This document shows, one piece after another, positions 9,591-57,446 of a DNA stretch of 64,000 nucleotides (position 1 is the stretch's first letter; each line of letters opens with the position of its first letter). The notes under the pieces were generated by a model, which did not search any database, had not been told where the DNA came from, and was given only the letters and a program-made list of their open reading frames with translations. Origin of the DNA: a phage. Position numbers and translations under genes: made by a program. Where the stretch lies: the sequence record PX418213.1. One strand, given 5' to 3'.

Positions 9591-9600
9591 ATAAATGTAT

Positions 9601-9629
9601 TTGCTTTCAACTCAGTTTTGTTATATAAT
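9601..9629 (+). promoter_or_regulatory. sigma70 promoter, N25 type
   Basis: TTGCTT, 17 nt, TATAAT; downstream leader gagagggttgcaaaGTG. Confidence 0.55.
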
Positions 9630-9659
9630 ATTTATATAAATTAATGAGAGGGTTGCAAA

Positions 9660-9932
9660 GTGAAAAAGATAAATATAAGTACACTTAAACCTTTCCCATA
9701 TATCGGACAGCCTCTTATACTTATGTGGGAGGAGAAGATTAATGGAGAAAAGTATTCTAAAATTAGAAGTGGGTATAAGCTGATTTCACTTCATTACGAA
9801 AAAGAAATATTAACAGCTGAAATATACTCTCCATTGTCAGATAGGCTAGTAAAAACCACGTATTTGCATCTCTGCAAAAATTTTACATGGCACGGATCCA
9901 CTAGACAGCCCACGTACTATGAGGCAGAATAA
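9660..9932 (+). CDS. hypothetical protein (90 aa, GTG start)
   Basis: ORF track; stop overlaps the ligase start (TAAATG). Confidence 0.4.
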   Translation: MKKINISTLKPFPYIGQPLILMWEEKINGEKYSKIRSGYKLISLHYEKEILTAEIYSPLSDRLVKTTYLHLCKNFTWHGSTRQPTYYEAE

Positions 9933-10904: not shown

Positions 10905-11047
10905 TACATAACCCTTTGCTACCCATCTACCATATCGGAATTATAAAGTGGTTATTGACATTTTCGCCGCTTAGGTATATACTATTATCATTCAGTTGAG
11001 GGATAGAAAGTTATGGCGAGGGTAAGCAAAGTTAGTTAAAATTGTAG

Positions 11048-11076
11048 TTGCTAAATGCTTAAATACTTGCTATAAT
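11048..11076 (+). promoter_or_regulatory. sigma70 promoter inside the ligase intergenic gap
   Basis: TTGCTA, 17 nt, TATAAT; a second candidate with TTGACA lies at 10955-10983. Confidence 0.5.
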
Positions 11077-11106
11077 ATTTATATAAATTGATAAGGAAGA
11101 AATTTG

Positions 11107-11886
11107 ATGAAAATCGAAATTCCAACACAATGTCCCTCTTGTGGTTCTAAGCTAGATCTTGTCAACGGACAATTATTCTGTCGGAATAAGTCCAACTGTC
11201 CAGCGCAATCAAGTAAGTTAATTGAGAACTTCTGTTCAAAAATGAAGTTAAAGGGCTTTGGCCCAAAAACTATTGAGAAGCTGGAGCTGACGAAGATTTC
11301 AGAACTATTTTACCTAACCGAAGAAGATTTGGTTAGAGCCGTGGGTAGCAAGGTTGCCGCTAAGTTAATTAGCGAATTAAATACTAAAGTTCGCGGAGAC
11401 ATTGACTTTGGTTCAGTTCTCGGTTCTTTAGGAATCCCTCTAATTGGAGAGGTTGCAGCAAAGAAATTATCCCAAAATTGCACTAGCTTCCACGATGTGA
11501 AGGCTGACGGCAAGGCTGGAGAAAACTATAAAGCCTGGCTAAATTCCCCACAAGGCAAGGATGTTATCGAACTACCGTGGAAATTCTCAACTGGTATTAA
11601 GGGCACTAAAGCTAATATTATCATTACGGATGAATTAGTTGCCCGGCCAAATGGAATCACGGTATGTATTACCGGATCTTTGCAAGATTTTGCAAATAGA
11701 ACGGATGCAACAAACTATTTAGAAAGTCTAGGATATACGGTTAAGAAATCCGTTACCAAAGACGTTAAATACCTAATCTGTGAGGATGAATCAAAACGTT
11801 CTTCCTCATCTTATAAGAAAGCCGAAACGAATGGGATAGAAATCCTGTCGATTAAAGAACTATTGGAGAAAAATAATAATGTCTAA
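11107..11886 (+). CDS. NAD-dependent DNA ligase, C-terminal ORF (Zn finger, HhH, BRCT-like)
   Basis: CPSCGSKLD...CRNKSNC zinc-finger pattern; BRCT-like ITGSLQDF segment; ATG 11107 preceded by AAGGAAGA. Confidence 0.6.
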   Translation: MKIEIPTQCPSCGSKLDLVNGQLFCRNKSNCPAQSSKLIENFCSKMKLKGFGPKTIEKLELTKISELFYLTEEDLVRAVGSKVAAKLISELNTKVRGDIDFGSVLGSLGIPLIGEVAAKKLSQNCTSFHDVKADGKAGENYKAWLNSPQGKDVIELPWKFSTGIKGTKANIIITDELVARPNGITVCITGSLQDFANRTDATNYLESLGYTVKKSVTKDVKYLICEDESKRSSSSYKKAETNGIEILSIKELLEKNNNV

Positions 11887-12646
11887 ACTGAACTGGAACG
11901 TAGAAGGTGTAACCGAGTCTCTGAAAGCAAAAGCCACTGCTCTGGGTGTTGCTGTAATCTCTCAAGAACAAGTAGCTGCTATCGCTGCTGAACTGGCCGC
12001 TGAAACTGGCAAAGATGTTACTGCTCGCTCTGTTGGCTCTAAACTGCGTAAAGAAGGTTTTGAAGTACAGAAAGCTAACGAAGTACAGAAATCCCCGTGG
12101 ACTCCTGAGCAGGAAGCTGAACTGGTTGATTTCCTGAACGCTCATGCTGGTCAGTATACCTATGCTGAGATCGCTGCTGCTGTAGCTGGTGGTCAGTTCG
12201 GTGCTAAACAGGTACAGGGTAAGATTCTGAGTCTGGAAATGACCGCTTCTGTTAAACCAACCGAAAAAGCTGCTGCTGTTCGTTCCTTCACTCCGGATGA
12301 AGAAACTGATTTTGTTAATCAGGTTGTTGCTGGTGCTACTATTGAAGCTATCGCTGCTCACTTCGGTCGCAATATTAAGCAGATCCGCGGTAAAGCTCTG
12401 AGTCTGCTTCGTGAAGGTCGTATCGCTGCTATGCCAGTACAGGAAACTTCAAGTGCTAAAACTCGTGAAGATCTGTTAGAAGGTCTGGATCTGGTTAACA
12501 TGACTGTTGCTGAGATCGCTGAGAAAACTGGTAAGTCTGAGCGCGGTGTTAAATCTATGCTGTCTCGTCGTGGTCTGGTTGCTAAGGACTATGATGGTGC
12601 CGCTAAGCGTGCTAAACTGGATGCAAAAGCTGCGGCTGCTGAATAA
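11879..12646 (+). CDS. putative DNA-binding protein with four tandem HTH-like repeats
   Basis: Four internal repeats of the form (T/Y)xAEIAxxxGxxxxxVxxKxLSL..G; host-optimal codon usage suggests high expression. Confidence 0.4.
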   Translation: MSKLNWNVEGVTESLKAKATALGVAVISQEQVAAIAAELAAETGKDVTARSVGSKLRKEGFEVQKANEVQKSPWTPEQEAELVDFLNAHAGQYTYAEIAAAVAGGQFGAKQVQGKILSLEMTASVKPTEKAAAVRSFTPDEETDFVNQVVAGATIEAIAAHFGRNIKQIRGKALSLLREGRIAAMPVQETSSAKTREDLLEGLDLVNMTVAEIAEKTGKSERGVKSMLSRRGLVAKDYDGAAKRAKLDAKAAAAE

Positions 12647-12663
12647 TCTGGTAAATTAAACCT

Positions 12664-12697
12664 AAGGGGAGGGGGCTATGCTCCTTCCCCTTTTTGC
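12664..12697 (+). terminator. rho-independent terminator
   Basis: 12-bp stem (two G-U pairs) aaggggaggggg / ctccttcccctt followed by TTT. Confidence 0.55.
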
Positions 12698-12728
12698 ATT
12701 TAGAAGGCACGAAAGCGTGCAAAGGAGA

Positions 12729-14201
12729 ATGACCTTGTTTAACGTGCAAGCTGTAGTGTTGAAGATGCTTCTAGCTTCCGAACAGAAGCAAATAGCATTG
12801 GAAACATTCTCAAAACTGCATAAAGATCATTTTAATGACGCTTTCTCCTCAATTTACCAAGCCGTCCAGAATTATTATAAAAAATATAACACAATGCCGT
12901 CCATTGACGCACTTATGCTTGAAGCTAATAGGAACGCCCGCCTTTCTCAAGCTCTAGTCGTCTTAGCTAACACTCAAATTCCAGAAGTGAGCATGGAACA
13001 GGCACTTGAAGTCCTAGAAGCCGAATATACACAGGATTTATTCCTGAAGCTTCTAGAAACAGACGTGCTTCAAGATTTAACAATGCTGGATCAGGGAGAA
13101 ATTCTCAACCGAGTTGCCTCCCTTCACTTAAAATTAGAAGAGAAAGTAACGAATACTGGAAAAGTATTCAACGCAGATAACATGCGTATTTTCCAGAGAG
13201 AAGAAGATACCAAACTGAACTTAATCGCTCTTGGTATTTGTAATGAGTTCGACGCTCAAATTGGTTTAGCTCGCACAGAAACGTTACTGCTTGGTGGTTG
13301 GCGTGGTACTGGTAAATCCATTATCTGTTCAAACATACAGGTTCAGCAATATTTGAATGGGGATATTGCTCCATACTTCTCAATTGAGATGAAAGAACAT
13401 GAGGTATTTAGACGTAATCTAGCCATGTTAGCTGGTGTATCAGCATTAGCAATGCGTAATAATACTCTAGAAGGTGCAGCTCTGTTGAGATTAGCCAGAA
13501 CTAGAGCTAGAATGTTTAATGGTGGTGAAGAGCTTTTCGATAACTTCGTTAAACAGTACACAATGGCTAAGATGAGTGATTTCTACGATATGGAGAGTAA
13601 GCTAATAGAAGGATATGAGCTACATACTCCTATGATTATTGTTTATGACCCTGAGCTGTCTATTACAACAGTTGACGTAGAATTAAATAAATTAGTTGCT
13701 AGATATGGTGATAAAGTTACAGTAGCTTTACTGGACTATATTAACCAAACCCGACTTCCAGACTCTAAAACCATTGATATGTATGACTGGAAAGAACAGA
13801 TGGTTGTCAGCTCGTCTTTCAAATCTATCTGCCAGAAACATAACGTGGCTGGTGTAGCTCCTTACCAGATCGATCAAGATGGTAGAACACGTATGTCAAA
13901 GGGGATTCTTGATTCCGCAGACATGGCTGCTAATCTTAATGCTGCAAAAGCTGATAATGGTCAAGGTGCTATTATGTTTGACTTCGTTAAGACTCGTTCT
14001 TCTGATAGCGTGAAGTTTATGCCTAAAATGAACTGGGAAACTCTGCGAATGGATAACACTACCAACCTAGCAATGGAAGATATATCTCAAATGGAAGCTG
14101 AGTTCGTTATCCCTATTGAGAAGGATAAGCCGGCTCAACCTAAACGTGCTAAGAAAGACAAAACTGAAAATTCAACAGGTGAACAGGCCAGCGATATATG
14201 A
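12729..14201 (+). CDS. DnaB-like replicative helicase
   Basis: Walker A GGWRGTGKS in the C-terminal RecA-like domain; ORF track start 12678 lies inside the upstream terminator, so ATG 12729 (or in-frame TTG 12735 with better AAGGAG spacing) is more likely. Confidence 0.6.
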   Translation: MTLFNVQAVVLKMLLASEQKQIALETFSKLHKDHFNDAFSSIYQAVQNYYKKYNTMPSIDALMLEANRNARLSQALVVLANTQIPEVSMEQALEVLEAEYTQDLFLKLLETDVLQDLTMLDQGEILNRVASLHLKLEEKVTNTGKVFNADNMRIFQREEDTKLNLIALGICNEFDAQIGLARTETLLLGGWRGTGKSIICSNIQVQQYLNGDIAPYFSIEMKEHEVFRRNLAMLAGVSALAMRNNTLEGAALLRLARTRARMFNGGEELFDNFVKQYTMAKMSDFYDMESKLIEGYELHTPMIIVYDPELSITTVDVELNKLVARYGDKVTVALLDYINQTRLPDSKTIDMYDWKEQMVVSSSFKSICQKHNVAGVAPYQIDQDGRTRMSKGILDSADMAANLNAAKADNGQGAIMFDFVKTRSSDSVKFMPKMNWETLRMDNTTNLAMEDISQMEAEFVIPIEKDKPAQPKRAKKDKTENSTGEQASDI

Positions 14202-15088
14202 GTAGAATAACAGAACTACTTGATCTGAAAGGCATTGAATATAAAGACACAGGTGGGGACATCCTCATCTGTTGTCTCAATCCAGATCATGACGATAAAC
14301 ACCCAAGTTTGCGTATTGATCCTGAAACAGGTATTATGCACTGCTTGAGTTGTGGCTTCGGTAAAGGTATACCGAGCATTTACCATTATTTTAATGAGAC
14401 TCAGTACCGACAGTCCCCAAGACTATCGCAGGTACGCAAAAAGATTTCAGAGATTAGGAATGGATCAACGAATCTTGCAATTCCTGAATCTGCTTACCTT
14501 TTCGAAGGTGATTTCCGAGGTATAAGTTCTAAGACCTTGAAGAAATATTTTGCTTTCCAACACCAAGCAGACTGGGAAGGCAGAATTGTATTCCCAATCA
14601 CAGATGCTGTTGGACGCAATATCCTATTTTTGGGTCGTTCTATAAACAGTTCTGCCCCTCCTAAATACTTAGTAAAACCAAAACAAGTTTCACCACCTAT
14701 TTTCCCTGTACGATATAATACTCCAGTTCTTATTCTAGTTGAAGGTATCTTTGATATGCTGAACCTAGAGGATAATGGTATAGACTATGCTTCTTGCTGC
14801 TTTGGTACACATCAGTTTACTTCGGATAACATTGCAGATAAGTTCAGCCCTTATATTATTGCTGGTGTAAAAGTTGTTGTTATCTTACTAGATAATGATG
14901 CTTCTGGTAATAAGGCTGCACAAGCATTGGCCAAATTAATTCGCACAAAAACGCGTTTAACACCTGTAGTTGCTAACTTTCTCCTGCCTGAAGGCAAAGA
15001 TCCGGGTGATTTAAACAAAGATGAAATTGATATGTTAGCAAAACGTATTGAAATTTTAGTTGCTGAATCGCTTAAAGATTTGGTATAA
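14198..15088 (+). CDS. DnaG-like DNA primase (zinc-binding plus TOPRIM)
   Basis: CCLNPDHDDKHPSL...HCLSCGFG zinc-binding motif; TOPRIM residues LVEG and LDNDASG; ATG overlaps the helicase stop (ATGA). Confidence 0.65.
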   Translation: MSRITELLDLKGIEYKDTGGDILICCLNPDHDDKHPSLRIDPETGIMHCLSCGFGKGIPSIYHYFNETQYRQSPRLSQVRKKISEIRNGSTNLAIPESAYLFEGDFRGISSKTLKKYFAFQHQADWEGRIVFPITDAVGRNILFLGRSINSSAPPKYLVKPKQVSPPIFPVRYNTPVLILVEGIFDMLNLEDNGIDYASCCFGTHQFTSDNIADKFSPYIIAGVKVVVILLDNDASGNKAAQALAKLIRTKTRLTPVVANFLLPEGKDPGDLNKDEIDMLAKRIEILVAESLKDLV

Positions 15089-15150
15089 TATATTGGTAAG
15101 TTAGAGAAGAAACACTGAAGTTATACTTACTTACCAAGAGGAGATTAAAT

Positions 15151-17718
15151 TTGAAAATCGCAGTAGTTGATAAAGCTCTAAATAACACTCGTTACGATAA
15201 ACATTTCCAGCTATACGGCGAGGAAGTTGATGTATTCCATATGTGTAACGAGAAGTTATCTGGTCGTTTGCTTAAAAAGCACATTACTATTGGAACACCA
15301 GAAAACCCATTTGATCCGAATGATTATGATTTTGTTATACTAGTAGGTGCTGAACCTTTCCTGTATTTCGCAGGTAAGAAAGGTATTGGTGACTATACTG
15401 GTAAACGTGTAGAGTATAATGGATATGCTAACTGGATTGCGAGTATCAGCCCAGCCCAGTTACACTTTAAGCCTGAAATGAAACCAGTTTTCGATGCAAC
15501 AGTAGAGAATATCCACGATATTATCAATGGTCGTGAGAAGATTGCAAAAGCTGGTGATTACCGTCCTATTACTGACCCTGACGAGGCAGAAGAATATATC
15601 AAGATGGTGTATAATATGGTTATCGGACCTGTCGCATTCGACTCCGAAACCTCAGCACTATACTGTCGAGATGGTTATCTGCTTGGTGTTTCTATGTCTC
15701 ACCAAGAATATCAGGGTGTATATATCGATTCTGATTGTCTCACAGAGGTTGCAGTATATTATCTCCAGAAAATTCTGGATAGTGAAAACCACACTATTGT
15801 TTTTCACAACTTGAAGTTTGATATGCACTTTTATAAGTACCATCTGGGACTTACTTTTGATAAAGCACATAAAGAACGTAGGCTCCATGATACCATGTTG
15901 CAGCATTATGTTCTGGATGAACGTCGTGGTACTCATGGCTTGAAATCTCTAGCAATGAAGTATACCGATATGGGTGACTATGACTTTGAACTAGATAAGT
16001 TCAAGGAGGATTACTGCAAAGCACATAAAATCAAGAAAGAAGATTTCACCTATGATTTAATTCCGTTTGATATTATGTGGCCTTACGCTGCAAAAGATAC
16101 CGATGCCACCATACGTTTGCATAACTTCTTCTTACCAAAAATTGAGAAGAATGAAAAACTTTGCAGTCTGTATTATGACGTTCTAATGCCTGGTTGCGTA
16201 TTTCTCCAGCGTGTTGAGGATCGTGGTGTACCTATTTCTATTGATCGTTTAAAAGAAGCTCAGTACCAGTTAACACATAATCTGAATAAAGCTCGTGAAA
16301 AGCTGTATACTTATCCAGAAGTCGTTCAGCTAGAGAAAGATCAGAACGAAGCGTTTAACCCAAACTCTGTTAAACAACTCCGTGTTCTTCTGTTTGATTA
16401 TGTTGGCTTAACTCCAACAGGTAAATTGACGGATACTGGAGCAGACTCTACAGATGCAGAAGCTCTGAACGAACTGTCTACGCAGCATCCAATTGCTAAA
16501 ACTCTGCTAGAGATTCGTAAGCTAACTAAGCTGATCTCTACTTACGTTGAGAAGATTCTTCTGAGCATTGATGCTGATGGTTGCATTCGTACTGGCTTCC
16601 ACGAACACATGACTACTTCTGGTCGTCTGAGTTCTTCTGGTAAACTGAACCTGCAACAGCTACCTCGTGATGAATCTATTATCAAGGGTTGTGTAGTAGC
16701 TCCTCCCGGGTATCGTGTAATCGCGTGGGACTTAACAACTGCGGAAGTTTATTATGCTGCTGTTCTATCTGGTGATAGAAATATGCAACAAGTATTTATC
16801 AACATGAGAAATGAACCAGATAAATACCCTGACTTCCACTCTAACATCGCACACATGGTATTTAAGCTCCAATGCGAACCTCGTGATGTTAAAAAGTTAT
16901 TCCCAGCTCTGCGTCAGGCTGCTAAGGCAATTACCTTCGGTATTTTGTATGGTTCTGGCCCGGCTAAAGTAGCTCATTCTGTTAATGAAGCTCTTCTGGA
17001 ACAAGCTGCTAAGACAGGTGAACCGTTTGTAGAGTGTACTGTTGCAGATGCTAAAGAGTACATTGAAACTTACTTCGGTCAGTTCCCGCAGCTTAAGCGT
17101 TGGATTGATAAATGTCATGACCAGATCAAGAATCATGGATTTATCTATAGTCACTTTGGTCGTAAACGTCGTCTGCATAATATCCATTCCGAAGACCGTG
17201 GTGTTCAGGGTGAAGAAATCCGTTCTGGATTTAACGCAATCATTCAGTCTGCTTCTTCTGATAGTCTCCTTTTAGGTGCTGTAGATGCAGATAATGAGAT
17301 CATTTCTCTTGGCCTAGAACAAGAGATGAAGATTGTTATGCTGGTTCATGACTCCGTAGTTGCTATTGTTCGTGAGGATTTGATCGACCAATACAATGAA
17401 ATCCTGATTCGTAATATTCAGAAAGACCGTGGTATCAGTATTCCTGGCTGTCCGATTGGTATTGATTCAGATTCTGAAACTGGAGGTTCTCGTGACTATT
17501 CTTGTGGTAAGATGAAGAAACAGCACCCATCAATCGCTTGTATTGATGATGATGAATATACTCGTTATGTCAAGGGTGTATTACTTGATGCAGAGTTCGA
17601 GTATAAGAAACTAGCTGCAATGGATAAAGAGCATCCAGATCATAGCAAATACAAGGATGATAAGTTTATTGCTGTATGTAAAGATTTGGATAACGTGAGA
17701 AGGATTCTCGGTGCTTGA
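15151..17718 (+). CDS. family-A DNA polymerase with 3'-5' exonuclease domain
   Basis: Exo motif FDSETSALY; Pol I motif A AWDLTTAEVYY, motif B RQAAKAITFGILYGSG, motif C LVHDS; 855 aa; TTG start after GAGGAG. Confidence 0.85.
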   Translation: MKIAVVDKALNNTRYDKHFQLYGEEVDVFHMCNEKLSGRLLKKHITIGTPENPFDPNDYDFVILVGAEPFLYFAGKKGIGDYTGKRVEYNGYANWIASISPAQLHFKPEMKPVFDATVENIHDIINGREKIAKAGDYRPITDPDEAEEYIKMVYNMVIGPVAFDSETSALYCRDGYLLGVSMSHQEYQGVYIDSDCLTEVAVYYLQKILDSENHTIVFHNLKFDMHFYKYHLGLTFDKAHKERRLHDTMLQHYVLDERRGTHGLKSLAMKYTDMGDYDFELDKFKEDYCKAHKIKKEDFTYDLIPFDIMWPYAAKDTDATIRLHNFFLPKIEKNEKLCSLYYDVLMPGCVFLQRVEDRGVPISIDRLKEAQYQLTHNLNKAREKLYTYPEVVQLEKDQNEAFNPNSVKQLRVLLFDYVGLTPTGKLTDTGADSTDAEALNELSTQHPIAKTLLEIRKLTKLISTYVEKILLSIDADGCIRTGFHEHMTTSGRLSSSGKLNLQQLPRDESIIKGCVVAPPGYRVIAWDLTTAEVYYAAVLSGDRNMQQVFINMRNEPDKYPDFHSNIAHMVFKLQCEPRDVKKLFPALRQAAKAITFGILYGSGPAKVAHSVNEALLEQAAKTGEPFVECTVADAKEYIETYFGQFPQLKRWIDKCHDQIKNHGFIYSHFGRKRRLHNIHSEDRGVQGEEIRSGFNAIIQSASSDSLLLGAVDADNEIISLGLEQEMKIVMLVHDSVVAIVREDLIDQYNEILIRNIQKDRGISIPGCPIGIDSDSETGGSRDYSCGKMKKQHPSIACIDDDEYTRYVKGVLLDAEFEYKKLAAMDKEHPDHSKYKDDKFIAVCKDLDNVRRILGA

Positions 17719-17726
17719 TTTCAAAT

Positions 17727-17747
17727 TGCCCGTATATGCTTTACGGG
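17727..17747 (+). other. hairpin immediately after the polymerase stop
   Basis: gcccgta / tacgggc stem with 7-nt loop; no strong T-run. Confidence 0.3.
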
Positions 17748-17758
17748 CGTTTGTATCA

Positions 17759-18208
17759 ATGGAGCAAGAAGGTGATTATTCCGTAATTACAACAAGATAT
17801 AATAAATATGTGCTAGATAACAGGAAGTTGCCTGGCACTTTTTCTCAACGTAGGCTTATTCTATTTGAGAAACGGAAAGAATTACCATACAAGCTCTACC
17901 CTATTAGAGGTAGAATATCAATGTTGTCTCAATTAGTTGGGTCAAAGCGTAACCAATTCATAGATTCTGATGGAAATCTTATTAATTGGAAGAAAACTAC
18001 GTTCTATGATGTTGTCACCTCTAAAGTTTTGCATTCAGCTAGAATTTATAACGGAAAATACCAATGCTATGTAGCTAAAGTTCCATATCCATTTGTATTA
18101 TCCTATGTTCCAGCTTATATAAGCTATATTCTGGTAAATAATAGCCCTGTTATTTATCAAGTCCATCAAGAGGAGCCTGAAATTCCTAGACTTAGAATAA
18201 AATTATGA
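17759..18208 (+). CDS. hypothetical protein
   Basis: ORF track 17711..18208; first ATG downstream of the hairpin is 17759; start uncertain. Confidence 0.3.
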   Translation: MEQEGDYSVITTRYNKYVLDNRKLPGTFSQRRLILFEKRKELPYKLYPIRGRISMLSQLVGSKRNQFIDSDGNLINWKKTTFYDVVTSKVLHSARIYNGKYQCYVAKVPYPFVLSYVPAYISYILVNNSPVIYQVHQEEPEIPRLRIKL

Positions 18209-19557
18209 AGGTTGTTATATCTAATAAAGCCTATTTCAAGCCCGATGATGAACTTTGGGATTATTGTAGTAAGCAAACCACTTATCACATAGAGACAATG
18301 ACTAGTAAATACCCTATTATGTATAAGAATAGTGGTGTTGTTGCTAAAGAGATTAAGTGGATTCCTATCACGCGTCTGGATTTACTAGATGCTAAAGGAG
18401 TAAAATACGAATTAGTAGATAAACGTACATTAGCTCCGGTAGATATACCAAAACCTAAGTTCAAGCTGCGTGAAGAAGACCAGCTCCCAATATATGAAGA
18501 GTGCGATGATACTTGTATTATTAATGGTAAGCCTGGATTTGGTAAAACTATCCTAGCCCTTGCACTTGCGTATAAATTTGGCCAGAAAACTCTGGTAATA
18601 TGTACGAATACATCCATTCGTGAGATGTGGGCAGCAGAAGTTCGTAAATGGTTTGGGTTTGAGCCTGGTATCATAGGTTCTGGGAAATATAACATTGATC
18701 CACCAATTGTGGTCAGTAATATTCAAACAGTGAATAAACATGCGAATAATCTTTCTAAAGTATTCGGTACTGTTATAGTTGATGAAGTTCATCATTGTGT
18801 GGCTACAACTTTCACTAACTTCCTAGAAATATCATGTGCTCGCTATAAGATTGGACTATCCGGTACATTAAAACGAAAAGATGGTCTACAAGTTATGTTC
18901 AAAGATTTCTTTGGATATAAGATCTTTAGCCCACCGGTTAATAATACTGTTGCACCTACAATCCATAGGTACTCCGTGCCTGTTGAGTTATCAGGAAACC
19001 AAAACGTACCATGGGCATTACGTGCTAATGATGTGTACAATCATCCTGAGTATCGAGAGACTATTATAAACCTGGCACACTTATACGTGAATATGGGGCA
19101 TAAAGTACTCATTGTAAGTGACAGAACAGAGTTAATCCAAACAGTACTAGAAGCTCTTGCACAGCGTGGTGTTACAACATATGAAATTATAGGGGCAACC
19201 CACTTAGATGACCGATTAAAAATCCAGGAAGATATAGCAAAAGGTGGACCTTGTGTACTTGCAGCAGCTCAAAGTATCTTCTCTGAAGGTATTTCTCTTA
19301 ATGAGTTGTCTTGTTTAATAATGGGAAGTCTTATTAATAATGAGTCTCTCATTGAACAGCTTGCAGGACGTGTTCAACGTATTGTCGATGGTAAACTCGA
19401 CCCTATTGTTGTAGATCTAATCATGAAAGGTGGCACTGGACTAAGACAGGCTTCTGGACGTATGGCAGTATATCGTAACAATGGGTGGAAAACTATTACC
19501 ATGACTCCGGAGAAAGCAGTTCAATTAGCTAAAATTGCATTTGGCAACAGCTCATAA
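18205..19557 (+). CDS. SF2 DNA helicase
   Basis: Walker A GKPGFGKT, DEVH box VDEVHHC, C-terminal helicase motifs QLAGRVQR. Confidence 0.7.
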   Translation: MKVVISNKAYFKPDDELWDYCSKQTTYHIETMTSKYPIMYKNSGVVAKEIKWIPITRLDLLDAKGVKYELVDKRTLAPVDIPKPKFKLREEDQLPIYEECDDTCIINGKPGFGKTILALALAYKFGQKTLVICTNTSIREMWAAEVRKWFGFEPGIIGSGKYNIDPPIVVSNIQTVNKHANNLSKVFGTVIVDEVHHCVATTFTNFLEISCARYKIGLSGTLKRKDGLQVMFKDFFGYKIFSPPVNNTVAPTIHRYSVPVELSGNQNVPWALRANDVYNHPEYRETIINLAHLYVNMGHKVLIVSDRTELIQTVLEALAQRGVTTYEIIGATHLDDRLKIQEDIAKGGPCVLAAAQSIFSEGISLNELSCLIMGSLINNESLIEQLAGRVQRIVDGKLDPIVVDLIMKGGTGLRQASGRMAVYRNNGWKTITMTPEKAVQLAKIAFGNSS

Positions 19558-19569
19558 ATGATGTATAAT
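19541..19569 (+). promoter_or_regulatory. sigma70 promoter
   Basis: TTGGCA, 17 nt, TATAAT. Confidence 0.45.
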
Positions 19570-19640
19570 ATATACATAAATTTGAGAGAGAAAGTTTCGG
19601 ATTGATAAGAAAGTCCGAAGCAGAAAAATAAAAATTTTAG

Positions 19641-19670
19641 TTGCTAAATTCTCTCGAAATCTAGTATAAT
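19641..19670 (+). promoter_or_regulatory. sigma70 promoter
   Basis: TTGCTA, 18 nt, TATAAT; leader cataaattcgaggag. Confidence 0.5.
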
Positions 19671-51185: not shown

Positions 51186-52973
51186 TTAGGTAAGGCGTTG
51201 AACTGTTACTCGTAATCTCGGTAAGAAAACTGCGGCGGATTCATTTGCATGTATAACTACACCTAACTCAGCTTTACCGTTACCCAAATTTTTAATAGTA
51301 TAAATAAATCCACTTCTAGTAAATGTTAAATCATCAGGTCGACTAGCCCACTGCTGTGTATAGCTATAAGAAGCTGTAGTATGGAAGGGCACCAAATGAT
51401 TAGGTGGTAAAGTTAATATTTGATGGAATACCCCGTCACCACCGGTATAACTTTGTTGTCTTCTACCTTGCACCTGCCACGCAGTACCACCGTATGTTCG
51501 TATAGGACCTCCTGCTGTATTAAGATTTCCGGCAACTACTTCAGTAGTTAGGATTACTGTAGAGTTTGCATTAGGTAATCCAAGACCCACTGTAGATAGA
51601 GCTACGTACTTATTCCCAGTACCTGGGTAAGAAGGATTTATGTCATCACCTATGTACGTACTAGCTACGTTATTTGGTAGTAATCGTAAAGGTACTGAAG
51701 AAGGCCCCCAAACAACTCCGTGCTCATTACCTATAGTATTATTATTGGAATTAACATACCATTGTTTACCAGCAGAGAATTTGTAAATACTTATCTGAGA
51801 CTTAGAACCACCATAATTTACAGGTGACCACAAAGAACCTTTGTTAGAGCCTACAATTTCACATCTTGCTGTAGTATCCCCAAAGACTCCGGTATAAGCA
51901 ACGTTATTACCAATGTACTCCATATCAGGTCTAGATGATAAGTTACCAAAAGCATTCTGATTAATGAATTTGTAACTAGTGTTTGGAAGACTAACACCTT
52001 TTATAGTAAAGTTAGAAGGACTTATACGAATGTCGGATCCAGTAAAAGGATTACTAGCAACGCTCATACTACCATTAGAGTATCTAAGATTCAGCACATA
52101 CCAAATAACCCTAGTCGGAGTAATATTATAGCTATCTTGAACATACTTCTTCTTTGCTGCCTGTGATGCTAAATTAGATGTCGAGCCTCTGCATACATAA
52201 ACCTTATTCGGATAGGTAGAAGAATTATATAGTACACTCACATTACTTGGCGTAGTGCCTTTTTTACCCGCGTATCCACGTATATTAGAGTTACAAACAT
52301 AAAACCAATTATGACCTCTTTTTCCCGCCCCTATAGGAGCTTGCCAATTAGGGTGCCAGAAGTCAACATTACCACTATTTATCGATACTTTAGATGCTCC
52401 AGCTGGAAATCCTGCTAAAGTCCATGCCCTACCTATAGCTTCACCGGCGTATGCCCCACCAGGTCTATATAAATTAAACCCAGAAGCCTGTGATATAGTA
52501 CCACCAGTACCTTGTCTAGCTATTGACTCTTCATGTCCCAGACTAGAGTTATAAGTATAAGTACCATGTGCTAAACTATTACCAGATGCAAAAGCTGACG
52601 TAAGACCTAATTCAGCACCAGCCCTGCCAATAGGGGGATCTTCAAAAAATGCAAGAAATTGTCCAACCTGGGATTGAGTACCATTAAGAAAAGCTCTATG
52701 TGTACCATTTATCTCAACAGCGGTTAGTATAACTCTACCAGGATCATTACTCTTTAGGTTAGCTATCACAGAAGGCATCTGGCATACGTAGAAACCATTC
52801 CCAGCGCTACTTAATGCACTTTCATAAGTACTCTCAACTAGAACAAATGGCATATCAGAGTGAAATATAGTATTGGCATTAGGAGTTTTGTGAGCATTAA
52901 TATCCCCACCATTCACTTTGTTTAGTGATAATACAGTTTTACCATCACTATATTTTCCAGCGAAAAAACCCAT
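51186..52973 (-). CDS. receptor-binding tail protein (pb5-like)
   Basis: 595 aa, Gly/Asn/Ser/Thr-rich; divergent from an adjacent lipoprotein gene, as in the T5 oad/llp arrangement. Confidence 0.5.
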
Positions 52974-52998
52974 ATAATCTCCTATTATAAAAATGTAT

Positions 52999-53027
52999 TT
53001 GCTTTCATCCCTCTATTTTGCTATAAT
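52999..53027 (+). promoter_or_regulatory. sigma70 promoter, N25 type, for the lipoprotein gene
   Basis: TTGCTT, 17 nt, TATAAT, then tagattcataaatt leader nearly identical to the 7359-7400 promoter. Confidence 0.6.
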
Positions 53028-53058
53028 AGATTCATAAATTAGAAATGGAGAGATAAAT

Positions 53059-53325
53059 ATGAAAAAGTTTGTGATTGCACTAGTTGCCGCAGTTATGTTA
53101 TCTGGTTGTGCACCTGCTCCCAAACCATTTTGTACGGGATTTGTAAAATCTTTTGGTGGTGCGGGAGAAGAACATTACGGTCTCAAGGTTCAAAAAGTTC
53201 GTATTAAGGGAGACCGCTTTCCAGTAGTACAGCTCCGTACTAAGTTTGGATGGTGGGATCTCAGTCAGTTTGACCTTAAATATGGTGATTGTAAATTTAA
53301 ACTAGAACAATCTAATTACTTGTAA
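53059..53325 (+). CDS. llp: lipoprotein, lytic-conversion (receptor-blocking) type
   Basis: Signal peptide with lipobox MLSGC; small size; divergent from the receptor-binding protein gene. Confidence 0.55.
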   Translation: MKKFVIALVAAVMLSGCAPAPKPFCTGFVKSFGGAGEEHYGLKVQKVRIKGDRFPVVQLRTKFGWWDLSQFDLKYGDCKFKLEQSNYL

Positions 53326-53501
53326 TTAGTATAAAACAAAAAGACATCCAAGTAAACTAAATTTTTTATTTCTTGGATGGTGTACTGGCAGAAAACACTA
53401 TGCAAGAAAAGTAGAAGTCCTTCTAGGAAGTCACAAGCATGGTTGGTTATGCACAAATTTTAAAATATTTCAAAATACCACATTTACGGGGCACGAAAGA
53501 T

Positions 53502-53630
53502 ATGTCAAACAAAAGAAAGAACAGACGCGGAGAAGTGTATGAAGCGTGGATTAATATTTACGGATTTGGTTTTGTATTATTCCTAATCTTCGTGGGTTTT
53601 TGGTTAGCAGCTATGGCGGGGTGGATTTAA
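53502..53630 (+). CDS. small single-pass membrane protein (array member 1)
   Basis: MSNKRKNRRGEVYEAWINIYGFGFVLFLIFVGFWLAAMAGWI; ORF track version starts at 53439. Confidence 0.35.
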   Translation: MSNKRKNRRGEVYEAWINIYGFGFVLFLIFVGFWLAAMAGWI

Positions 53631-53785
53631 TGGAATGGGTAACTATTGGCATATTCGTCTTATTGATACTTCTCTTCGTAGGCTTACGTGTAATAGATAC
53701 CTCTGTAACCCAAACAGAAATTAAATTAATGCAGTTGAGTAATAGATTATCTAGAATTGAAACTTTATTAGAGGAGCGTAAATAA
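53630..53785 (+). CDS. small single-pass membrane protein (array member 2)
   Basis: MEWVTIGIFVLLILLFVGL...RIETLLEERK; ATG overlaps the previous stop (TAATG); GGGTGGA upstream. Confidence 0.4.
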   Translation: MEWVTIGIFVLLILLFVGLRVIDTSVTQTEIKLMQLSNRLSRIETLLEERK

Positions 53786-53892
53786 TGGAATGGGTAATTA
53801 TTGCACTACTGGGGATTGTGATTATTGGGCAATGTATTTTAGATAATCACCTAGCTAGAATTGAAACCTTATTATTGGAGAAACGTAAATGA
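53785..53892 (+). CDS. small single-pass membrane protein (array member 3, 35 aa, absent from the ORF track)
   Basis: MEWVIIALLGIVIIGQCILDNHLARIETLLLEKRK, a clear paralog of member 2; TAATG overlap; GAGGAG upstream. Confidence 0.4.
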   Translation: MEWVIIALLGIVIIGQCILDNHLARIETLLLEKRK

Positions 53893-54083
53893 TGGAAGTG
53901 ACAGTTACACTAATAGTAATATTAGTCTGGGTAATCCTCATTGTCTCTCGTATCGTGTACCTCCGCCTAAAAACTCTAGAAGCTCAGGTGAAACAACAAC
54001 AAGTTATTCTAGAAAAGCTAGTACTACTGCAACGTTGTGATAGCACCCGTATTCTGCAAATTGAGAGGGAATTAGATGTTTAG
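53889..54083 (+). CDS. small single-pass membrane protein (array member 4)
   Basis: MMEVTVTLIVILVWVILIVSRIVYLRLKTLEAQ...; ATGA overlap with member 3. Confidence 0.4.
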   Translation: MMEVTVTLIVILVWVILIVSRIVYLRLKTLEAQVKQQQVILEKLVLLQRCDSTRILQIERELDV

Positions 54084-54321
54084 TATTATAATTGCTTTTA
54101 TTATCGGGATACTCGCGGGGGTTTTCGGAACGACTGCGGCAATCAACAAGCATCGTAAATATATTGCGGGAGTGACGCGGGAAATTGCGGAAAGGGAGCG
54201 GAAGTTTGACGAGAAACGTGCGGAGTTTGAGCGGGAGTGGTCGGATGGATCTCGGGCGTCGCGGAAGAGATTCCGTGAGTTCAGACCAGAACACAGGTTT
54301 GATGACCCTTCTATGCGCTAA
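54076..54321 (+). CDS. small membrane-anchored protein with charged C-terminal tail (array member 5)
   Basis: MFSIIIAFIIGILAGVFGTTAAI then Arg/Glu-rich tail; overlaps member 4. Confidence 0.4.
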   Translation: MFSIIIAFIIGILAGVFGTTAAINKHRKYIAGVTREIAERERKFDEKRAEFEREWSDGSRASRKRFREFRPEHRFDDPSMR

Positions 54322-54432
54322 TTTGACTTTTGCCAAATTTCATAAGATTACACATGGAGGTGTGTCCAGTGGGTTGGGAGAGAATACTTAGTCTGCTAAC
54401 CGCCACCCCCGTTACTATTACCATGCTAAATG

Positions 54433-54471
54433 TTTCACCCTGCAACCATTTTAATTGCAAGGTGAAACAAT
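54433..54471. other. hairpin between convergent genes
   Basis: 14-bp stem with one mismatch, gtttcaccctgcaa / ttgcaaggtgaaac. Confidence 0.3.
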
Positions 54472-54485
54472 TTCAACTTTAATTA

Positions 54486-55262
54486 TTACGCGACTTTTAG
54501 TTTCTCAATATATTGTTGCGGGCTGCAACTATATTCTGCGCGTTCTTCTTCTGTCATACTTTCCCAACATAGTTTTAAGCGATCGGCTAGGAACTGATAA
54601 TCATTATCATCCTCGAGCGATTCATCAATAAAGGTTCCGCCTATCAATGCCACGCCGATTGATAGAATATCATTAACGGCTTGCGCGTCCAACGTTTTAA
54701 ATCCGTATGATGCCGCCGCTGATAATACACCTTTATGATCATCAATCATTGTAAAATCAGCGTTCGGGTATAGCTGTTTAAATAATCCAAAGTAGTAACT
54801 TTTATATACTGCGTCCTTGCTGTGGTATATTTCGCTAACCTTATCAGCTTCAAAATATTTGTGCAGTGTATCGCGGGAAAATACACGGATATTACTATCC
54901 CCACGCCCGCGCAAGCCTTGCTTGCGTAGGAAGTAATAATCTGATTTGCTCATCAGGCGAGCGGTACAAATAAGGTTTAAGGTATTTGCGTCATTCATGC
55001 ATTGGCGCATATATTCAACTAATGGTAATAAGGTGTCTTGCATTATTAAATGATGCTTGCAAGCCTCGTTTTTGTATTTATTTAAATCTAAATTCCCGTC
55101 GCTATCAAAGCAAGGCGCTACGCGATGGAATGAGTTAACGATAGTGCCATCAAGATCCCAAATCATGACGCGGGAAACATGAGGAAAGCTACGGGTAATA
55201 TTCGTTTTAACTTGATTCATTTTGTTACGTTCTCCATTAAAGGGATGTAGTTTATCCAGCAT
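54486..55262 (-). CDS. dmp: HAD-family phosphatase, likely deoxynucleoside 5'-monophosphatase (dmp-like)
   Basis: HAD motif I VMIWDLDGTIV; sits in a pre-early-like block next to an A1-like gene. Confidence 0.5.
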   Translation of the reverse strand: MLDKLHPFNGERNKMNQVKTNITRSFPHVSRVMIWDLDGTIVNSFHRVAPCFDSDGNLDLNKYKNEACKHHLIMQDTLLPLVEYMRQCMNDANTLNLICTARLMSKSDYYFLRKQGLRGRGDSNIRVFSRDTLHKYFEADKVSEIYHSKDAVYKSYYFGLFKQLYPNADFTMIDDHKGVLSAAASYGFKTLDAQAVNDILSIGVALIGGTFIDESLEDDNDYQFLADRLKLCWESMTEEERAEYSCSPQQYIEKLKVA

Positions 55263-55760: not shown

Positions 55761-57446
55761 TTATGCGAAAAACTTACCGTTTTTAAAGTCAATCAAAGTG
55801 CGCTGGCCGTTCGCATAGGTAATTAAATGCGTTTGCGTCCAGCTTGACGCGCCAACGTTATAGCCCATATCTAGGGAACCAGCAACGCCCGCCGTATATA
55901 CGCCGCCGTAAATGCTGGCGGTGTGAGTGTGCCCCGTGTTTAACTTGCCCAATTTCTTAAACTGCTTAGGATTGCCACGGCTGCCGTTTATGCCGTTGTG
56001 ACCGTGTACGCCGCATTCAATGCCTGCAATCTTGAAAGATTGATCAGTCGTTAGGAAAATCGCGTTAAACTCGCAACCTGCGACGGTACGCAGCGCATAA
56101 TCTAGCACGTTGAAAGTATCATCCTGCCTTGCAATAGCTGCATAGATAGCGGCATTCAGGCGGTGATATAATTCCGCGTTTGCTGGATCGTCTTTAATGT
56201 TAGCATTGCGATCATCAAGCCAACGGGATAGCGCCAGATCGTGGTTTGATTCCACAATGATTGTTTGACTAAAATCACGTTCCATTGATTCCAGCACGCG
56301 CCCGGTATCGATGAGATCATCCAGAACCTTATCACGTCCGGCTGCATACTGTTTCGCTAGAAATACACCAGAAGCGCGGTTATGGTGGTTGCGCGATGTA
56401 AAATCATGCACGTCATGCACAAATTGATATTTTGGCTTGAGAATATCCACTAGCCCATAAGTATCACCGTGCCCCCATGACGCTGCGGCGCACTCCTCAT
56501 CAAGTTTTTCGGCGTGTATGTCGCCATATTGCAAGCCTAAAACATGCCCCGACGTTTCAAAGCATCCGGTGGGAGTAGCGCAAACGTTCAGATCGTAAAA
56601 CATGCCGCTTTCGTCCATCGTTTCAAGCTGGCGCACAAAAAACTCACCGTCTTCGTCGAACTCAACAATCAGCGCACCGAAATTATGCAATGCTTCCGCT
56701 TTCTGTCCTGCTTTCTGCTGAATGTAGTTTTTAAGCGTTGCCGTTCCGGTGGAATACATGCGGCGCACTACTTCACCTTTGAGAGCTGGCACGCTTTCGG
56801 CGGTGATTTTAGCGTGACCAATTGCCAGACCTTCCAGATTAAGCGCGGTTGCAGTTTCTGCGAATCCAGACAGCGGATAGTCTGCGGTGGGCAAAACATT
56901 AATTTCAGCCATGAAAGCGAAACGGCGGTTATTTAAAAACACGTTTTTACTGCAAATATATTTATCAAACGCGGAATCATATTTGATTCCGTCTGCGCCT
57001 TCCCCATTCTGGAATCCGTTTTTATTATAAATATACTTGCTAACCAGCAAATCAGCGCCGATAAATTGGGCGTATTGCTCCAACGCGGCTAAAAAGTTTT
57101 TATGCGGGAAAGTATTATTTTGAATCGACGTTAGAATAAAGCGTTTACCTTGTTTTACTTCCCACTGTTCCACCGTGCTAGAAATAATTCCAGCCGCTTC
57201 GGGGCGCTCGTCGTTTTTAATGGCTTTTGCTACTTTCGCCGCTTTTGGTTTCGCTGGTTTATTTGCTTCCAGCCAATCACAAATCGCGGTGGAGTGTTTT
57301 GCAGTATCGTAAACCGCTTTCGAAATATCGTCACAAACTTCCAGCTTGGTGGCGCGCAGACGTTTACCATAGAAATTAAAGTCAGCGGCCAGCTTCAGGA
57401 TAACGGTTTGCTTTTCTGCGGAAATAATCATAGTAATAAGCTCCAT
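55761..57446 (-). CDS. A1: A1-like pre-early protein with metallophosphoesterase domain
   Basis: 561 aa; calcineurin-like motifs YGDIH, ESNHD, GHxH-like GHTH; adjacent to an A2-like gene. Confidence 0.55.
   Translation of the reverse strand: MELITMIISAEKQTVILKLAADFNFYGKRLRATKLEVCDDISKAVYDTAKHSTAICDWLEANKPAKPKAAKVAKAIKNDERPEAAGIISSTVEQWEVKQGKRFILTSIQNNTFPHKNFLAALEQYAQFIGADLLVSKYIYNKNGFQNGEGADGIKYDSAFDKYICSKNVFLNNRRFAFMAEINVLPTADYPLSGFAETATALNLEGLAIGHAKITAESVPALKGEVVRRMYSTGTATLKNYIQQKAGQKAEALHNFGALIVEFDEDGEFFVRQLETMDESGMFYDLNVCATPTGCFETSGHVLGLQYGDIHAEKLDEECAAASWGHGDTYGLVDILKPKYQFVHDVHDFTSRNHHNRASGVFLAKQYAAGRDKVLDDLIDTGRVLESMERDFSQTIIVESNHDLALSRWLDDRNANIKDDPANAELYHRLNAAIYAAIARQDDTFNVLDYALRTVAGCEFNAIFLTTDQSFKIAGIECGVHGHNGINGSRGNPKQFKKLGKLNTGHTHTASIYGGVYTAGVAGSLDMGYNVGASSWTQTHLITYANGQRTLIDFKNGKFFA

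Follow-up and report, generated by a model that had tools for sequence, protein, structure and literature searches.

Five short genes of the T5.159-T5.162 type, encoding predicted inner-membrane proteins, between llp and the terminal repeat of a T5-like phage

The genes and their conservation

The DNA analysed here (the window) is a stretch of 64,000 nucleotides from sequence record PX418213.1, and it corresponds to the right-hand end of the genome of a T5-like phage (Tequintavirus). On the + strand, five consecutive short open reading frames of 35-81 aa, called ORF1 to ORF5, occupy positions 53502-54321, in agreement with the original prediction. They are flanked by the llp/cor lipoprotein gene on one side and, on the other, by the right terminal repeat, which is predicted to begin at about 54364. 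Their position next to an llp-like gene is also as it had been described: the array immediately follows a gene for a lipoprotein of 88 aa that has an LSGC lipobox and belongs to PHROG 1119.

The five frames are almost certainly genuine genes. Each codes for a bitopic inner-membrane protein consisting essentially of one long alpha-helix, and the unique part of the genome ends with this set. ORF1 (53502..53630, 42 aa) is the ortholog of T5.159 and matches the profile phrog_8596 with an E value of 6e-31. ORF2 (53630..53785, 51 aa) and ORF3 (53785..53892, 35 aa) both match phrog_6369 (E 2.9e-15 and 1.7e-25, respectively); ORF3 is the ortholog of T5.160 and ORF2 is an additional T5.160 paralog. ORF4 (53889..54083) is the ortholog of T5.161 (phrog_5851, E 9.1e-31) and ORF5 (54076..54321, 81 aa) is that of T5.162 (phrog_6447, 'membrane protein', E 1.8e-47). 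In each case the whole profile is covered by the match. The start of ORF1 is fixed, because the upstream in-frame ATG of its relatives reads ACG here. ORF4 can begin either at 53889, giving 64 aa, or with the second ATG at 53892, giving 63 aa. Two of the frames had been described as shorter than 60 aa. Three are this short with the boundaries then used, whereas a mechanical ORF lister extends ORF1 and ORF2 upstream to 63 and 61 aa, leaving ORF3 as the only one.

The T5 reference genome annotates T5.159-T5.162 as hypothetical proteins, with the remark 'contains single transmembrane domain'. The position, order, lengths, overlaps and annotation of these genes are as in the present phage, and the amino acid identity is 75-94%. 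T5 differs in lacking the 51-aa ORF2, the present phage having two genes of the T5.160 type. The two phages also differ in the adjacent llp, which belongs to the BF23/BtuB type here and to the T5/FhuA type in T5. The gene order, the strand and the location between llp and the terminal repeat (the dmp side) are common to T5, MM-1, DaisyDussoix, HildyBeyeler and 18 IMG/VR genomes. The cassette, annotated in T5 in 2005 and represented by four PHROG families (8596, 6369, 5851 and 6447), is thus already known and is no new kind of system, although its family had initially not been recognised. In the literature searched, T5.159-T5.162 are not named in the main text, and the papers on BF23, DT57C, Stitch and Shivani, as well as those related to the BASEL collection, do not discuss them.

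The dN/dS ratio is 0.12-0.40 in the annotated frames, compared with 0.45-2.35 in shifted frames, and it is always the annotated frame that has the lowest value. The individual values are 0.12-0.15 for ORF1, 0.20 for ORF2, 0.16 for ORF3, 0.40 for ORF4 and 0.30 for ORF5; llp, at 0.19, is similar. The frames are conserved, under purifying selection, in 26 related loci: ORF1, ORF3 and ORF5 were found in all 26, with ORF1 being 42 aa long in all of them and ORF5 being shortened in some, and ORF4 was found in 24. A loss of the frames from close relatives, which the original prediction had named as grounds for refuting it, is not observed. Absence of ORF4 and truncation of ORF5 occur in some natural isolates. 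At least a part of the cassette is present in about 446 T5-like phage records, and ORF2 is present in 38 of these (about 8%). The PHROG matches, with E values of 3e-15 to 2e-47, likewise go well beyond what chance would give.

The ORFs are very short and the repeat boundary is only 42 nt away, as might be expected if they were chance frames in a non-coding spacer and the region were conserved for its role as DNA, for example in packaging or in forming the repeat. However, the low dN/dS is confined to the annotated frame, the starts, stops and lengths are kept in the 26 loci, and a Shine-Dalgarno-like sequence precedes every one of the five starts. Synonymous divergence, which reaches about 0.39 per site across the loci, speaks against a DNA-level constraint. 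As judged from these sequence comparisons, the frame-specific purifying selection effectively refutes the non-coding explanation, which is extremely improbable. An antisense ORF of 110 aa at 54004-54336 was rejected, since selection acts on the + frame.

Membrane helices, predicted topology and relatives of the proteins

Each of the five proteins has a 19-residue segment with a mean Kyte-Doolittle hydropathy of 2.3-2.8, and the summed Hessa free energies of these segments are near zero or negative. This agrees with one transmembrane (TM) segment per protein, as had been anticipated. An N-terminal TM helix followed by a charged tail had been proposed for all five. Hydropathy and charge support this for ORF2-5, but ORF1 has the reverse layout: its N-terminus is basic (MSNKRKNRRGEVY) and its TM segment, residues 24-42, forms the extreme C-terminus. 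It is predicted to be tail-anchored, with the N-terminus inside.

The N-terminal TM segment is followed by a heptad-patterned helix in ORF2, by a short helix ending in ARIETLL in ORF3, and by a heptad helix with an invariant C-terminal QRCDSTRILQIERELDV in ORF4. Leucine, isoleucine, valine or methionine occupies 75-78% of the heptad a/d positions in the tails of ORF2-4 (9 of 12 in ORF4). The TM segment of ORF5 is situated at residues 1-19 and has the pattern G11xxxG15xxG18, in which all three glycines are invariant. It continues into a long Arg/Glu/Lys-rich helix, the tail having 18 K/R and 13 D/E residues. AF2 models show a single helix in both of the longest proteins, extending over residues 2-63 in ORF4 (pLDDT 88) and over residues 2-69 in ORF5 (pLDDT 76).

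The topology was assigned by the positive-inside rule only. The positive charges are on the N-terminal side of the TM segment in ORF1 (5 K/R) and on the C-terminal side in ORF4 (3 K/R) and ORF5 (NKHRK), and the C-termini of ORF4 and ORF5 are predicted to be inside, that is, cytoplasmic. The charge pattern of ORF2 and ORF3 is ambiguous.

The original prediction regarded the five proteins as paralogs. This is true of ORF2 and ORF3, which indeed have MEWV...RIETLL in common and find each other by hhalign (93%) and by reciprocal hmmsearch (E about 7e-5). The 5' ends of their genes contain a 21-nt direct repeat, 95% identical, with a spacing of 155 nt. ORF4 gives 19-20% in hhalign against ORF2 or ORF3, and every pair that includes ORF1 or ORF5 gives 5% or less. 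Within the window, hmmsearch found no link beyond that of ORF2 with ORF3 and no further paralogs. At the level of sequence, then, ORF2 and ORF3 are the only demonstrable paralogs, ORF4 is a weak relative at best, and ORF1 and ORF5 are unrelated. The junctions described as TAATG/ATGA are present between ORF1 and ORF2 and between ORF2 and ORF3 (both TAATG) and between ORF3 and ORF4 (ATGA or TGATG), but ORF4 and ORF5 overlap by 8 nt. Overlapping stop and start codons are frequent in phage genomes and, for this reason, are no proof of a stoichiometric complex.

A homolog of known function was not found for any of ORF1-5 in Pfam, NCBIfam, PADLOC or the PDB sequences, in which the matches were noise or TM-driven and below threshold. 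A SecE-like match of ORF1 (E 0.06) was rejected as reflecting architecture only. The ORF5 profile gave five matches among 1.84 billion representative proteins, all of them T5-like, and T5-like proteins were also the sole result of word-index searches with ORF5 and ORF4. In Pfam, ORF5 scores 22.2 bits (E 0.00013) against LapA_dom (PF06305), short of the gathering threshold of 28 bits, and 12.8 bits against the ZapG-like family (PF06295), below its threshold of 33.5 bits; PspB gave no match. Ten of 12 members of the ORF5 family match LapA_dom, none better than the 22.2-bit protein of the window. What the LapA domain, ZapG/YhcB and PspB have in common with the present proteins is an N-terminal TM segment that leads through a basic stretch into a long helix of charged or zipper-like character; in proteins of these types the helix that follows the TM segment is cytoplasmic. 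The similarity of ORF5 to LapA may be driven by composition, and ORF5 is not a LapA member.

A comparable arrangement is found in Klebsiella phage Roth39, which belongs to the Klebsiella T5-like group, presumably Sugarlandvirus. Two genes, of 74 and 153 aa, lie beside the gene of the receptor-binding protein (RBP) and divergent from it, in the same position as here, and their products have an N-terminal TM segment and a coiled coil, as in the present set. The 74-aa protein is marginally homologous to ORF4 (hhalign 54.6%, E 1.2e-4), and a T5-type promoter directly precedes its gene. Roth39 differs in that it has only these two genes and lacks an annotated llp; moreover, nothing in ORF1-5 corresponds to the long Ser-rich tail of the 153-aa protein. 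Serratia phage Kamaji and Proteus phage RP7 were rejected as carriers of equivalent arrays, the place between dmp and the terminase or RBP gene being taken by unrelated soluble proteins, and so was Vibrio phage JSF12, which has one large annotated gene there. Among these four phages, only Roth39 has TM and coiled-coil genes at the corresponding place.

The proposed transcription unit

A sigma-70 promoter of the T5 type, TTGCTT-N17-TATAAT, is situated on the + strand at 52999..53027, upstream of llp, and is proposed to serve the whole unit from llp to ORF5. The pattern TTGCT-N17-19-TATAAT occurs seven times in the window, compared with 0.43 occurrences expected, and all seven are on the + strand. 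Six are located at 7-20 kb and the llp promoter is the seventh; from 20 kb to the end of the window, no other promoter with the T5 consensus occurs. We infer that the six are early-region promoters and that the llp promoter is of the same, early type. The T5 and AKFV33 records have a promoter annotated at the matching place before llp.

The llp/cor-type gene (53059..53325, + strand), which lies outside the array, encodes a receptor-blocking lipoprotein of the BF23/BtuB type. Its product matches PHROG 1119, 'Cor superinfection exclusion protein', with an E value of 1.8e-26 and the Pfam lipobox family LPAM_1 with 23.9 bits, which is over the cutoff, and it is 97-100% identical among relatives of the BtuB type. 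The spacer between llp and ORF1 contains a weak hairpin at 53345..53379 (-12.8 kcal/mol, z -1.1 on the + strand; -13.7 kcal/mol, z -1.6 on the - strand). It has a U-rich tail on the - strand only, there being no U-tract on the + strand, a terminator scan made no call at this place, and the hairpin is not convincing as a terminator of llp transcripts. Neither a consensus scan nor an alignment of 22 spacers showed a conserved -35/-10 pair that could be a separate promoter of ORF1, and in phages with different llp modules the homology restarts only about 50 nt before ORF1.

Downstream of the array, the right terminal repeat is predicted, by homology to the annotated boundaries of T5 and MM-1, to begin with base 54364, 42 nt past the ORF5 stop. 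The first gene of the repeat is dmp (54486..55262, - strand), named as deoxynucleoside-5'-monophosphatase from the annotations in relatives and 88-97% identical in Tequintavirus and Epseptimavirus loci. Between the convergent ORF5 and dmp genes, inside the terminal repeat, there is a strong hairpin at 54431..54469 (-17.4 kcal/mol, z -4.2 on the + strand; -28.3 kcal/mol, z -6.3 on the - strand), which is likely to terminate transcription in both directions and to close the llp-ORF5 unit.

Since the only nearby T5-type promoter precedes llp, and no conserved promoter or good terminator lies between llp and the array, ORF1-5 are probably part of an early llp operon. There is a reasonable likelihood that llp and ORF1-ORF5 form one messenger extending from the T5-type llp promoter to the hairpin at 54431-54469, which would be translated from gene to gene by way of the overlapping stop and start codons. 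RNA-seq data (PMC13250531 Dataset S1) are available for Bas33/HildyBeyeler, a phage with these same five genes. The unstranded values at 20 min are 219/127 TPM for llp, 162/137 TPM for ORF2 and 462/408 TPM for ORF4, and a block of the second-step DNA transfer leaves these genes with counts of about zero (one read in total). The same data set assigns very low counts to ORF1, ORF3 and ORF5 (0.5-22 TPM, unstranded); we ascribe this to the way in which reads are assigned where tiny genes overlap, but real attenuation could also be the cause.

Possible roles in infection

In a genome-wide CRISPRi-ART knockdown screen, T5.159-162 fall into the class 'Not Fit' (PMC11879866 supplement), which we read as meaning that they are dispensable for growth of T5 in the laboratory. 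Our tentative view is that ORF1-5 are accessory inner-membrane proteins with cytoplasm-facing helices, serving exclusion or host takeover and not belonging to the core lysis machinery. A course of events may be envisaged for the set, although it is somewhat doubtful as a whole. The hydrophobic helices would insert into the cytoplasmic membrane with almost no periplasmic exposure, so that three parts would face the cytoplasm: in ORF1 the basic N-terminus, in ORF4 the tail resembling a leucine zipper, and in ORF5 the long charged helix; the tails of ORF2 and ORF3 are probably cytoplasmic too, but their charges do not settle the matter. Homo- or hetero-oligomerisation could be driven by the heptad tails and, in ORF5, by the GxxxG motif, and the assemblies might then bind host inner-membrane components inside the bilayer or on its cytoplasmic side. 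The most likely result would be an accessory, conditionally useful early function, which either shields the infected cell from secondary invaders at the level of the inner membrane or disables a host membrane function. The proteins would take no part in the virion, in replication, in receptor blocking or in the core lysis machinery.

Concerning exclusion, T4 Imm and Sp, HK97 gp15 and P22 SieA are likewise small non-essential membrane proteins, and ORF1-5, which adjoin the proven exclusion gene llp, are proposed to be an early guard of a similar kind. There is no sequence similarity of ORF1-5 to these proteins, and no match to the exclusion families Imm, Sp, Sie or Cor was found for ORF1-5 in Pfam, PHROG, NCBIfam or PADLOC, only llp matching Cor. 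Imm, Sp, gp15 and SieA have functional parts exposed to the periplasm or contain several TM segments, whereas ORF1-5 are predicted to have almost no periplasmic part, and a periplasmic block of incoming phage proteins is hard to picture with cytoplasmic tails. It is unlikely, though conceivable, that the five proteins form a single hetero-oligomeric inner-membrane complex, held together by zipper tails and GxxxG, which closes the membrane to the import of competitor DNA or toxins and so constitutes a second, receptor-independent layer of exclusion.

The proteins might instead act separately, each inhibiting or re-tuning a host inner-membrane machine in the manner of AcrZ or MgtS, without excluding other phages; a conceivable target would be a transporter, a protease, a component of cell division or of the envelope-stress response, or a defence effector bound to the membrane. 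The predicted early-type promoter, the cytoplasm-facing tails and the unaffected growth on laboratory K-12 are compatible with such a role, as are the sub-threshold likeness of ORF5 to the membrane-anchored helices of LapA and ZapG-like proteins and the constancy of the cassette while the RBP/llp modules are swapped. The number of genes differs among isolates, as expected of independent accessory genes, yet ORF1, ORF3 and ORF5 are present in every locus examined, which is more uniform than is typical of anti-defence genes, and no known defence or anti-defence family is matched. The mechanism overlaps with that preferred above and differs from it in the physiological outcome only. On balance, independent takeover functions without exclusion are rather unlikely. 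A dependence on llp is much harder to maintain. If ORF1-5 aided the export, lipidation, sorting or receptor blocking of Llp, full exclusion would need llp together with the downstream genes, and the probable co-transcription would be natural. The llp gene of DT57C, cloned alone in an insert ending at the start of ORF1, reduced plating only about 100-fold, compared with the more than 10^6-fold reported in an earlier study of BF23 by Mondigler et al. (2006), a discrepancy that the authors left unexplained (PMC4728585) and that might fit such help. However, Llp alone blocks the receptor according to the literature, and the predicted cytoplasmic tails are away from the periplasmic lipoprotein. The same small genes accompany the non-homologous T5/FhuA and BF23/BtuB types of llp, remaining constant while the RBP/llp modules swap, and Roth39 retains an ORF4-like gene with no annotated llp; for these reasons a role tied to Llp is very unlikely.

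Of the three roles suggested by the original prediction, namely superinfection exclusion, envelope modulation and lysis timing, the last is the least favoured. At least one of the proteins, ORF5 being the best candidate, would be an auxiliary holin, an antiholin or a holin regulator that tunes the T5 holin. The small size, single TM segment and charged C-terminal domain are holin-like, and a regulator would be non-essential. ORF5 does have a TM segment and a charged C-terminal tail, but this feature is non-specific, and the neighbours of the array are llp and dmp instead of a lysis cassette. The T5-type lysis cassette, comprising holin, endolysin and both spanins, is described as belonging to the early region, at another place in the genome (PMC4342426). 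The sole promoter near the array has the T5 consensus, is of the inferred early type and is common with llp; there is no dual-start motif, no neighbouring endolysin gene, and no link to a holin family in Pfam or PHROG. A lysis-timing function is accordingly quite improbable. The N-terminal TM segment, the coiled-coil helix and the nearby lipoprotein gene also recall the i-spanins of the lambda Rz type, in which the N-terminus is inside, the C-terminus outside and the coiled coil periplasmic. ORF1-5, at 35-81 aa, are much shorter than these and lie beside llp, whereas the T5-type spanins are in the lysis cassette. The i-spanin identity was rejected, the topology predicted for ORF4 and ORF5 being opposite and that of ORF2 and ORF3 ambiguous, and a spanin pair with the neighbouring lipoprotein was rejected because the sole lipoprotein gene nearby, llp/cor (PHROG 1119), encodes a receptor blocker.

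The present analysis adds to the earlier annotation which of the ORFs are related, the likely operon and the likely topology. The set, which is shared with the model phage T5, is conserved in practically all sequenced T5-like phages, and no homologs were found elsewhere. If the second exclusion layer is real, it would complement the block by Llp at the outer membrane and might explain why exclusion by llp alone was weaker in one study than in the earlier one. T5-like phages are often considered for therapy and biocontrol, and membrane-active accessory genes beside llp could affect competition between phages, the design of phage cocktails and the physiology of the host during infection.

Coding status and identity of the five small genes

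Five short open reading frames, ORF1 to ORF5 (42, 51, 35, 64 and 81 aa), occupy positions 53502-54321 of the plus strand, between the gene for an 88-aa receptor-blocking lipoprotein, llp (53059-53325, plus strand), and the deoxynucleoside-5'-monophosphatase gene dmp (54486-55262, minus strand). The gene for a receptor-binding tail protein (51186-52973) and A1 (55761-57446), both on the minus strand, lie further out. Inspection of the reading frames bore out the coordinates of the original prediction. The TAATG and ATGA junctions that it described hold for four of the five ORFs, but ORF4 and ORF5 overlap by 8 nt. A purine-rich Shine-Dalgarno-like sequence is situated 6-12 nt 5' of every start (5/5).

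The array was compared with 26 related loci: four fully annotated GenBank genomes, 18 from IMG/VR and four that are more divergent. ORF1, ORF3 and ORF5 are found in all 26, ORF1 having a length of 42 aa throughout and ORF5 being truncated or having an alternative C-terminus in some copies. ORF4 is found in 24 of the 26 and ORF2 in just a handful. The pooled Nei-Gojobori dN/dS values are 0.15, 0.20, 0.16, 0.40 and 0.30 for ORF1 to ORF5, respectively, and 0.19 for llp. The control, in which the alignments were read in the two shifted frames, gave 0.45-2.35. ORF1-5 are protein-coding genes under purifying selection; they are not an artefact, and the reading frames are conserved in close relatives. 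Opposite parts of ORF4 and ORF5 runs an antisense ORF of 110 aa with a TTG start (54004-54336, minus strand). Since selection acts on the plus frame, this ORF is very probably spurious, and its richness in Arg, Pro and Ser is what the complement of Glu/Arg-rich codons would give.

The family, which the original prediction did not recognise, is annotated in the T5 reference record at exactly this position as T5.159 (129 nt), T5.160 (108 nt), T5.161 (195 nt) and T5.162 (246 nt), each marked "contains single transmembrane domain". Over their full length, the window proteins fit the respective PHROG families. ORF1-5 are thus already catalogued, as conserved small membrane proteins specific to the T5 group plus a lineage-specific duplicate, and are not a new kind of system. 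Nor are they five paralogs, as had been proposed: a clear relationship exists just between ORF2 and ORF3, that of ORF4 is marginal, and ORF1 and ORF5 are unrelated. ORF2 adds a further member to the T5.160 family and was found by tblastn in 38 phage records versus about 446 with the cassette. The DNA of ORF2 and ORF3 is nearly identical at the 5' ends (21 nt, 95%) and similar at the 3' ends (29 nt, 86%), whereas the middles differ, which fits gain or loss of ORF2 by recombination between the repeated ends. Several GenBank and UniRef orthologs of ORF4 and ORF5 carry the names "tail assembly protein", "tail fiber protein", "receptor blocking protein" or "H-N-H endonuclease"; these are without support and look like propagated mis-annotations.

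Membrane helices, variation and distribution

A single strongly hydrophobic stretch of 19 residues is present in each protein. The proposed layout of an N-terminal transmembrane (TM) helix and a charged tail holds except in ORF1, which has the opposite arrangement: its N-terminus is basic and its anchor C-terminal. AlphaFold2 gives one unbroken helix for ORF4 (residues 2-63, pLDDT 88) and for ORF5 (residues 2-69, pLDDT 76). The heptad a and d positions are Leu, Ile, Val or Met at 75-78% in the tails of ORF2, ORF3 and ORF4, and at 24% in that of ORF5, a helix rich in Arg, Glu and Lys that bears an aromatic stripe (F44, F51, W55 and F66 invariant). G11, G15 and G18 are invariant in the ORF5 membrane helix. 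The positive-inside rule predicts that the N-terminus of ORF1 and the C-termini of ORF4 and ORF5 are inside, and gives no decision for ORF2 and ORF3. Among curated families the sole recurrent hint is a sub-threshold match between ORF5 and the segment of the LapA domain that comprises the TM and charged helices (22.2 bits, cutoff 28; 10 of 12 members), which we take as a likeness of architecture and not as membership.

The last 14 codons of ORF5 (54274-54321) occur in at least three alternative versions, EFRPEHRFDDPSMR, MSESGDKPVDRRSS and I[ND]GKS (loci L004-L006, L008, L013, L016, L020 and L022-L024). The alternative ends accompany insertions of 200-600 bp in the ORF5-dmp interval; in some phages the insertion contains a homing endonuclease gene. 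A recombination or homing breakpoint seems to lie at codon 67. In the EPS7-type Epseptimavirus loci (L022-L024) an extra acidic ORF of 104 aa (MQDEEKSFQEP...), split in IrmaTschudi, lies between llp and ORF1; thus genes are both gained and lost at either end of the cassette.

In all, 332 phage records match region 52900-54600. Nearly all are T5-like and named as Escherichia or Salmonella phages; identity to Escherichia phage ESCO30 is 95.6%. Records labelled as Corynebacterium, Listeria and Campylobacter phages also include this T5-like segment and are probably contaminated or mislabelled. Homologs of ORF4 and ORF5 outside T5-like phages were found neither among GenBank phages (444 records, every one with an identity of 60% or more) nor in a collection of 5.8 billion proteins, and an ORF5 profile run against 1.84 billion representatives gave five matches, all within the family. 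More distant Demerecviridae have other genes between the terminase/receptor-binding protein (RBP) genes and dmp: soluble acidic proteins in Serratia Kamaji and Proteus RP7, and a single large annotated gene in Vibrio JSF12. Klebsiella phage Roth39, which has no annotated llp, carries two TM-plus-coiled-coil proteins there (locus L027, 165-967, minus strand), adjoining the RBP gene. The 74-aa protein aligns marginally with ORF4 (54.6%), and the 153-aa protein has a long Ser-rich tail; a T5-type promoter drives both, and they are possible functional analogues of the array.

Transcription and position in the genome

A perfect match to the T5-consensus promoter, TTGCTT-N17-TATAAT, lies 31 nt before llp (52999-53027, plus strand). 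The window has seven exact matches to TTGCT-N17-19-TATAAT, all on the plus strand, versus 0.43 expected. Six cluster at 7-20 kb (7359-19670) and are presumably early-region promoters; the llp promoter stands isolated among minus-strand late genes. No conserved promoter lies in the 176-nt stretch that separates llp from ORF1; where the llp module is of another kind, homology returns just about 50 nt before ORF1. The spacer hairpin (53345-53379) is weak and lacks a U-tract on the plus strand, while a strong hairpin follows ORF5 (54431-54469). Because of this arrangement, and of the T5-type promoter directly before the ORF4-like gene of Roth39, we infer from sequence that llp and ORF1-5 form a single early transcript. 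A U-rich tract (UCUUUUUGUUUUAU) follows the weak spacer fold (z -1.6) on the minus strand alone, and the hairpin could stop antisense transcripts from the dmp side of the repeat, not llp transcripts.

In Bas33 (HildyBeyeler), a relative with the same five genes, transcription of the locus at 20 min is similar in level to that of llp, and blocking second-step DNA transfer leaves the locus essentially silent, with a single read in total (PMC13250531). The library was unstranded, and ORF1 and ORF3 had almost no assigned reads (PMC13250531), which we ascribe to the way reads are assigned where short genes overlap.

The annotated right terminal repeat of T5 and MM-1 starts 42-43 nt past the last small gene. 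Aligned onto the window, the predicted boundary falls at 54363/54364, inside the ORF5-dmp interval (54322-54485) and 42 nt past the ORF5 stop; the genome's unique part therefore ends with ORF1-5. As the repeat is about 9.6-10.4 kb long in relatives, the end of the window is probably the physical end of the genome record or close to it.

Possible role of the array

T5.159-T5.162 are named in the main text of no paper in the searchable full-text literature. A CRISPRi-ART screen of T5 scored all four as "Not Fit" (PMC11879866), which we read as knockdown not impairing growth on laboratory E. coli. Among the loci compared, the cassette does not vary with the receptor specificity of the adjoining RBP/llp module. 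Probable early co-expression with llp, helices predicted to face the cytoplasm and putative oligomerisation motifs, together with universal conservation in the group and dispensability in the laboratory, suggest to us that ORF1-5 are accessory inner-membrane effectors that would act within or beneath the cytoplasmic membrane. Their benefit might be the exclusion of competitors or, with similar weight, the manipulation of host membrane function. Lysis timing ranks well below both, since a complete T5-type lysis cassette sits elsewhere in the genome (PMC4342426).

When DT57C llp was cloned by itself, in an insert that stops at the start codon of ORF1, plating fell about 100-fold, whereas an earlier study of BF23 had found a reduction of more than 10^6-fold, a discrepancy that the authors of the DT57C study could not explain (PMC4728585). 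It may be relevant to ORF1-5, though only as a lead. The significance of the array is now modest; only experimental evidence of a shared complex, or of an exclusion mechanism not yet described, would raise it.
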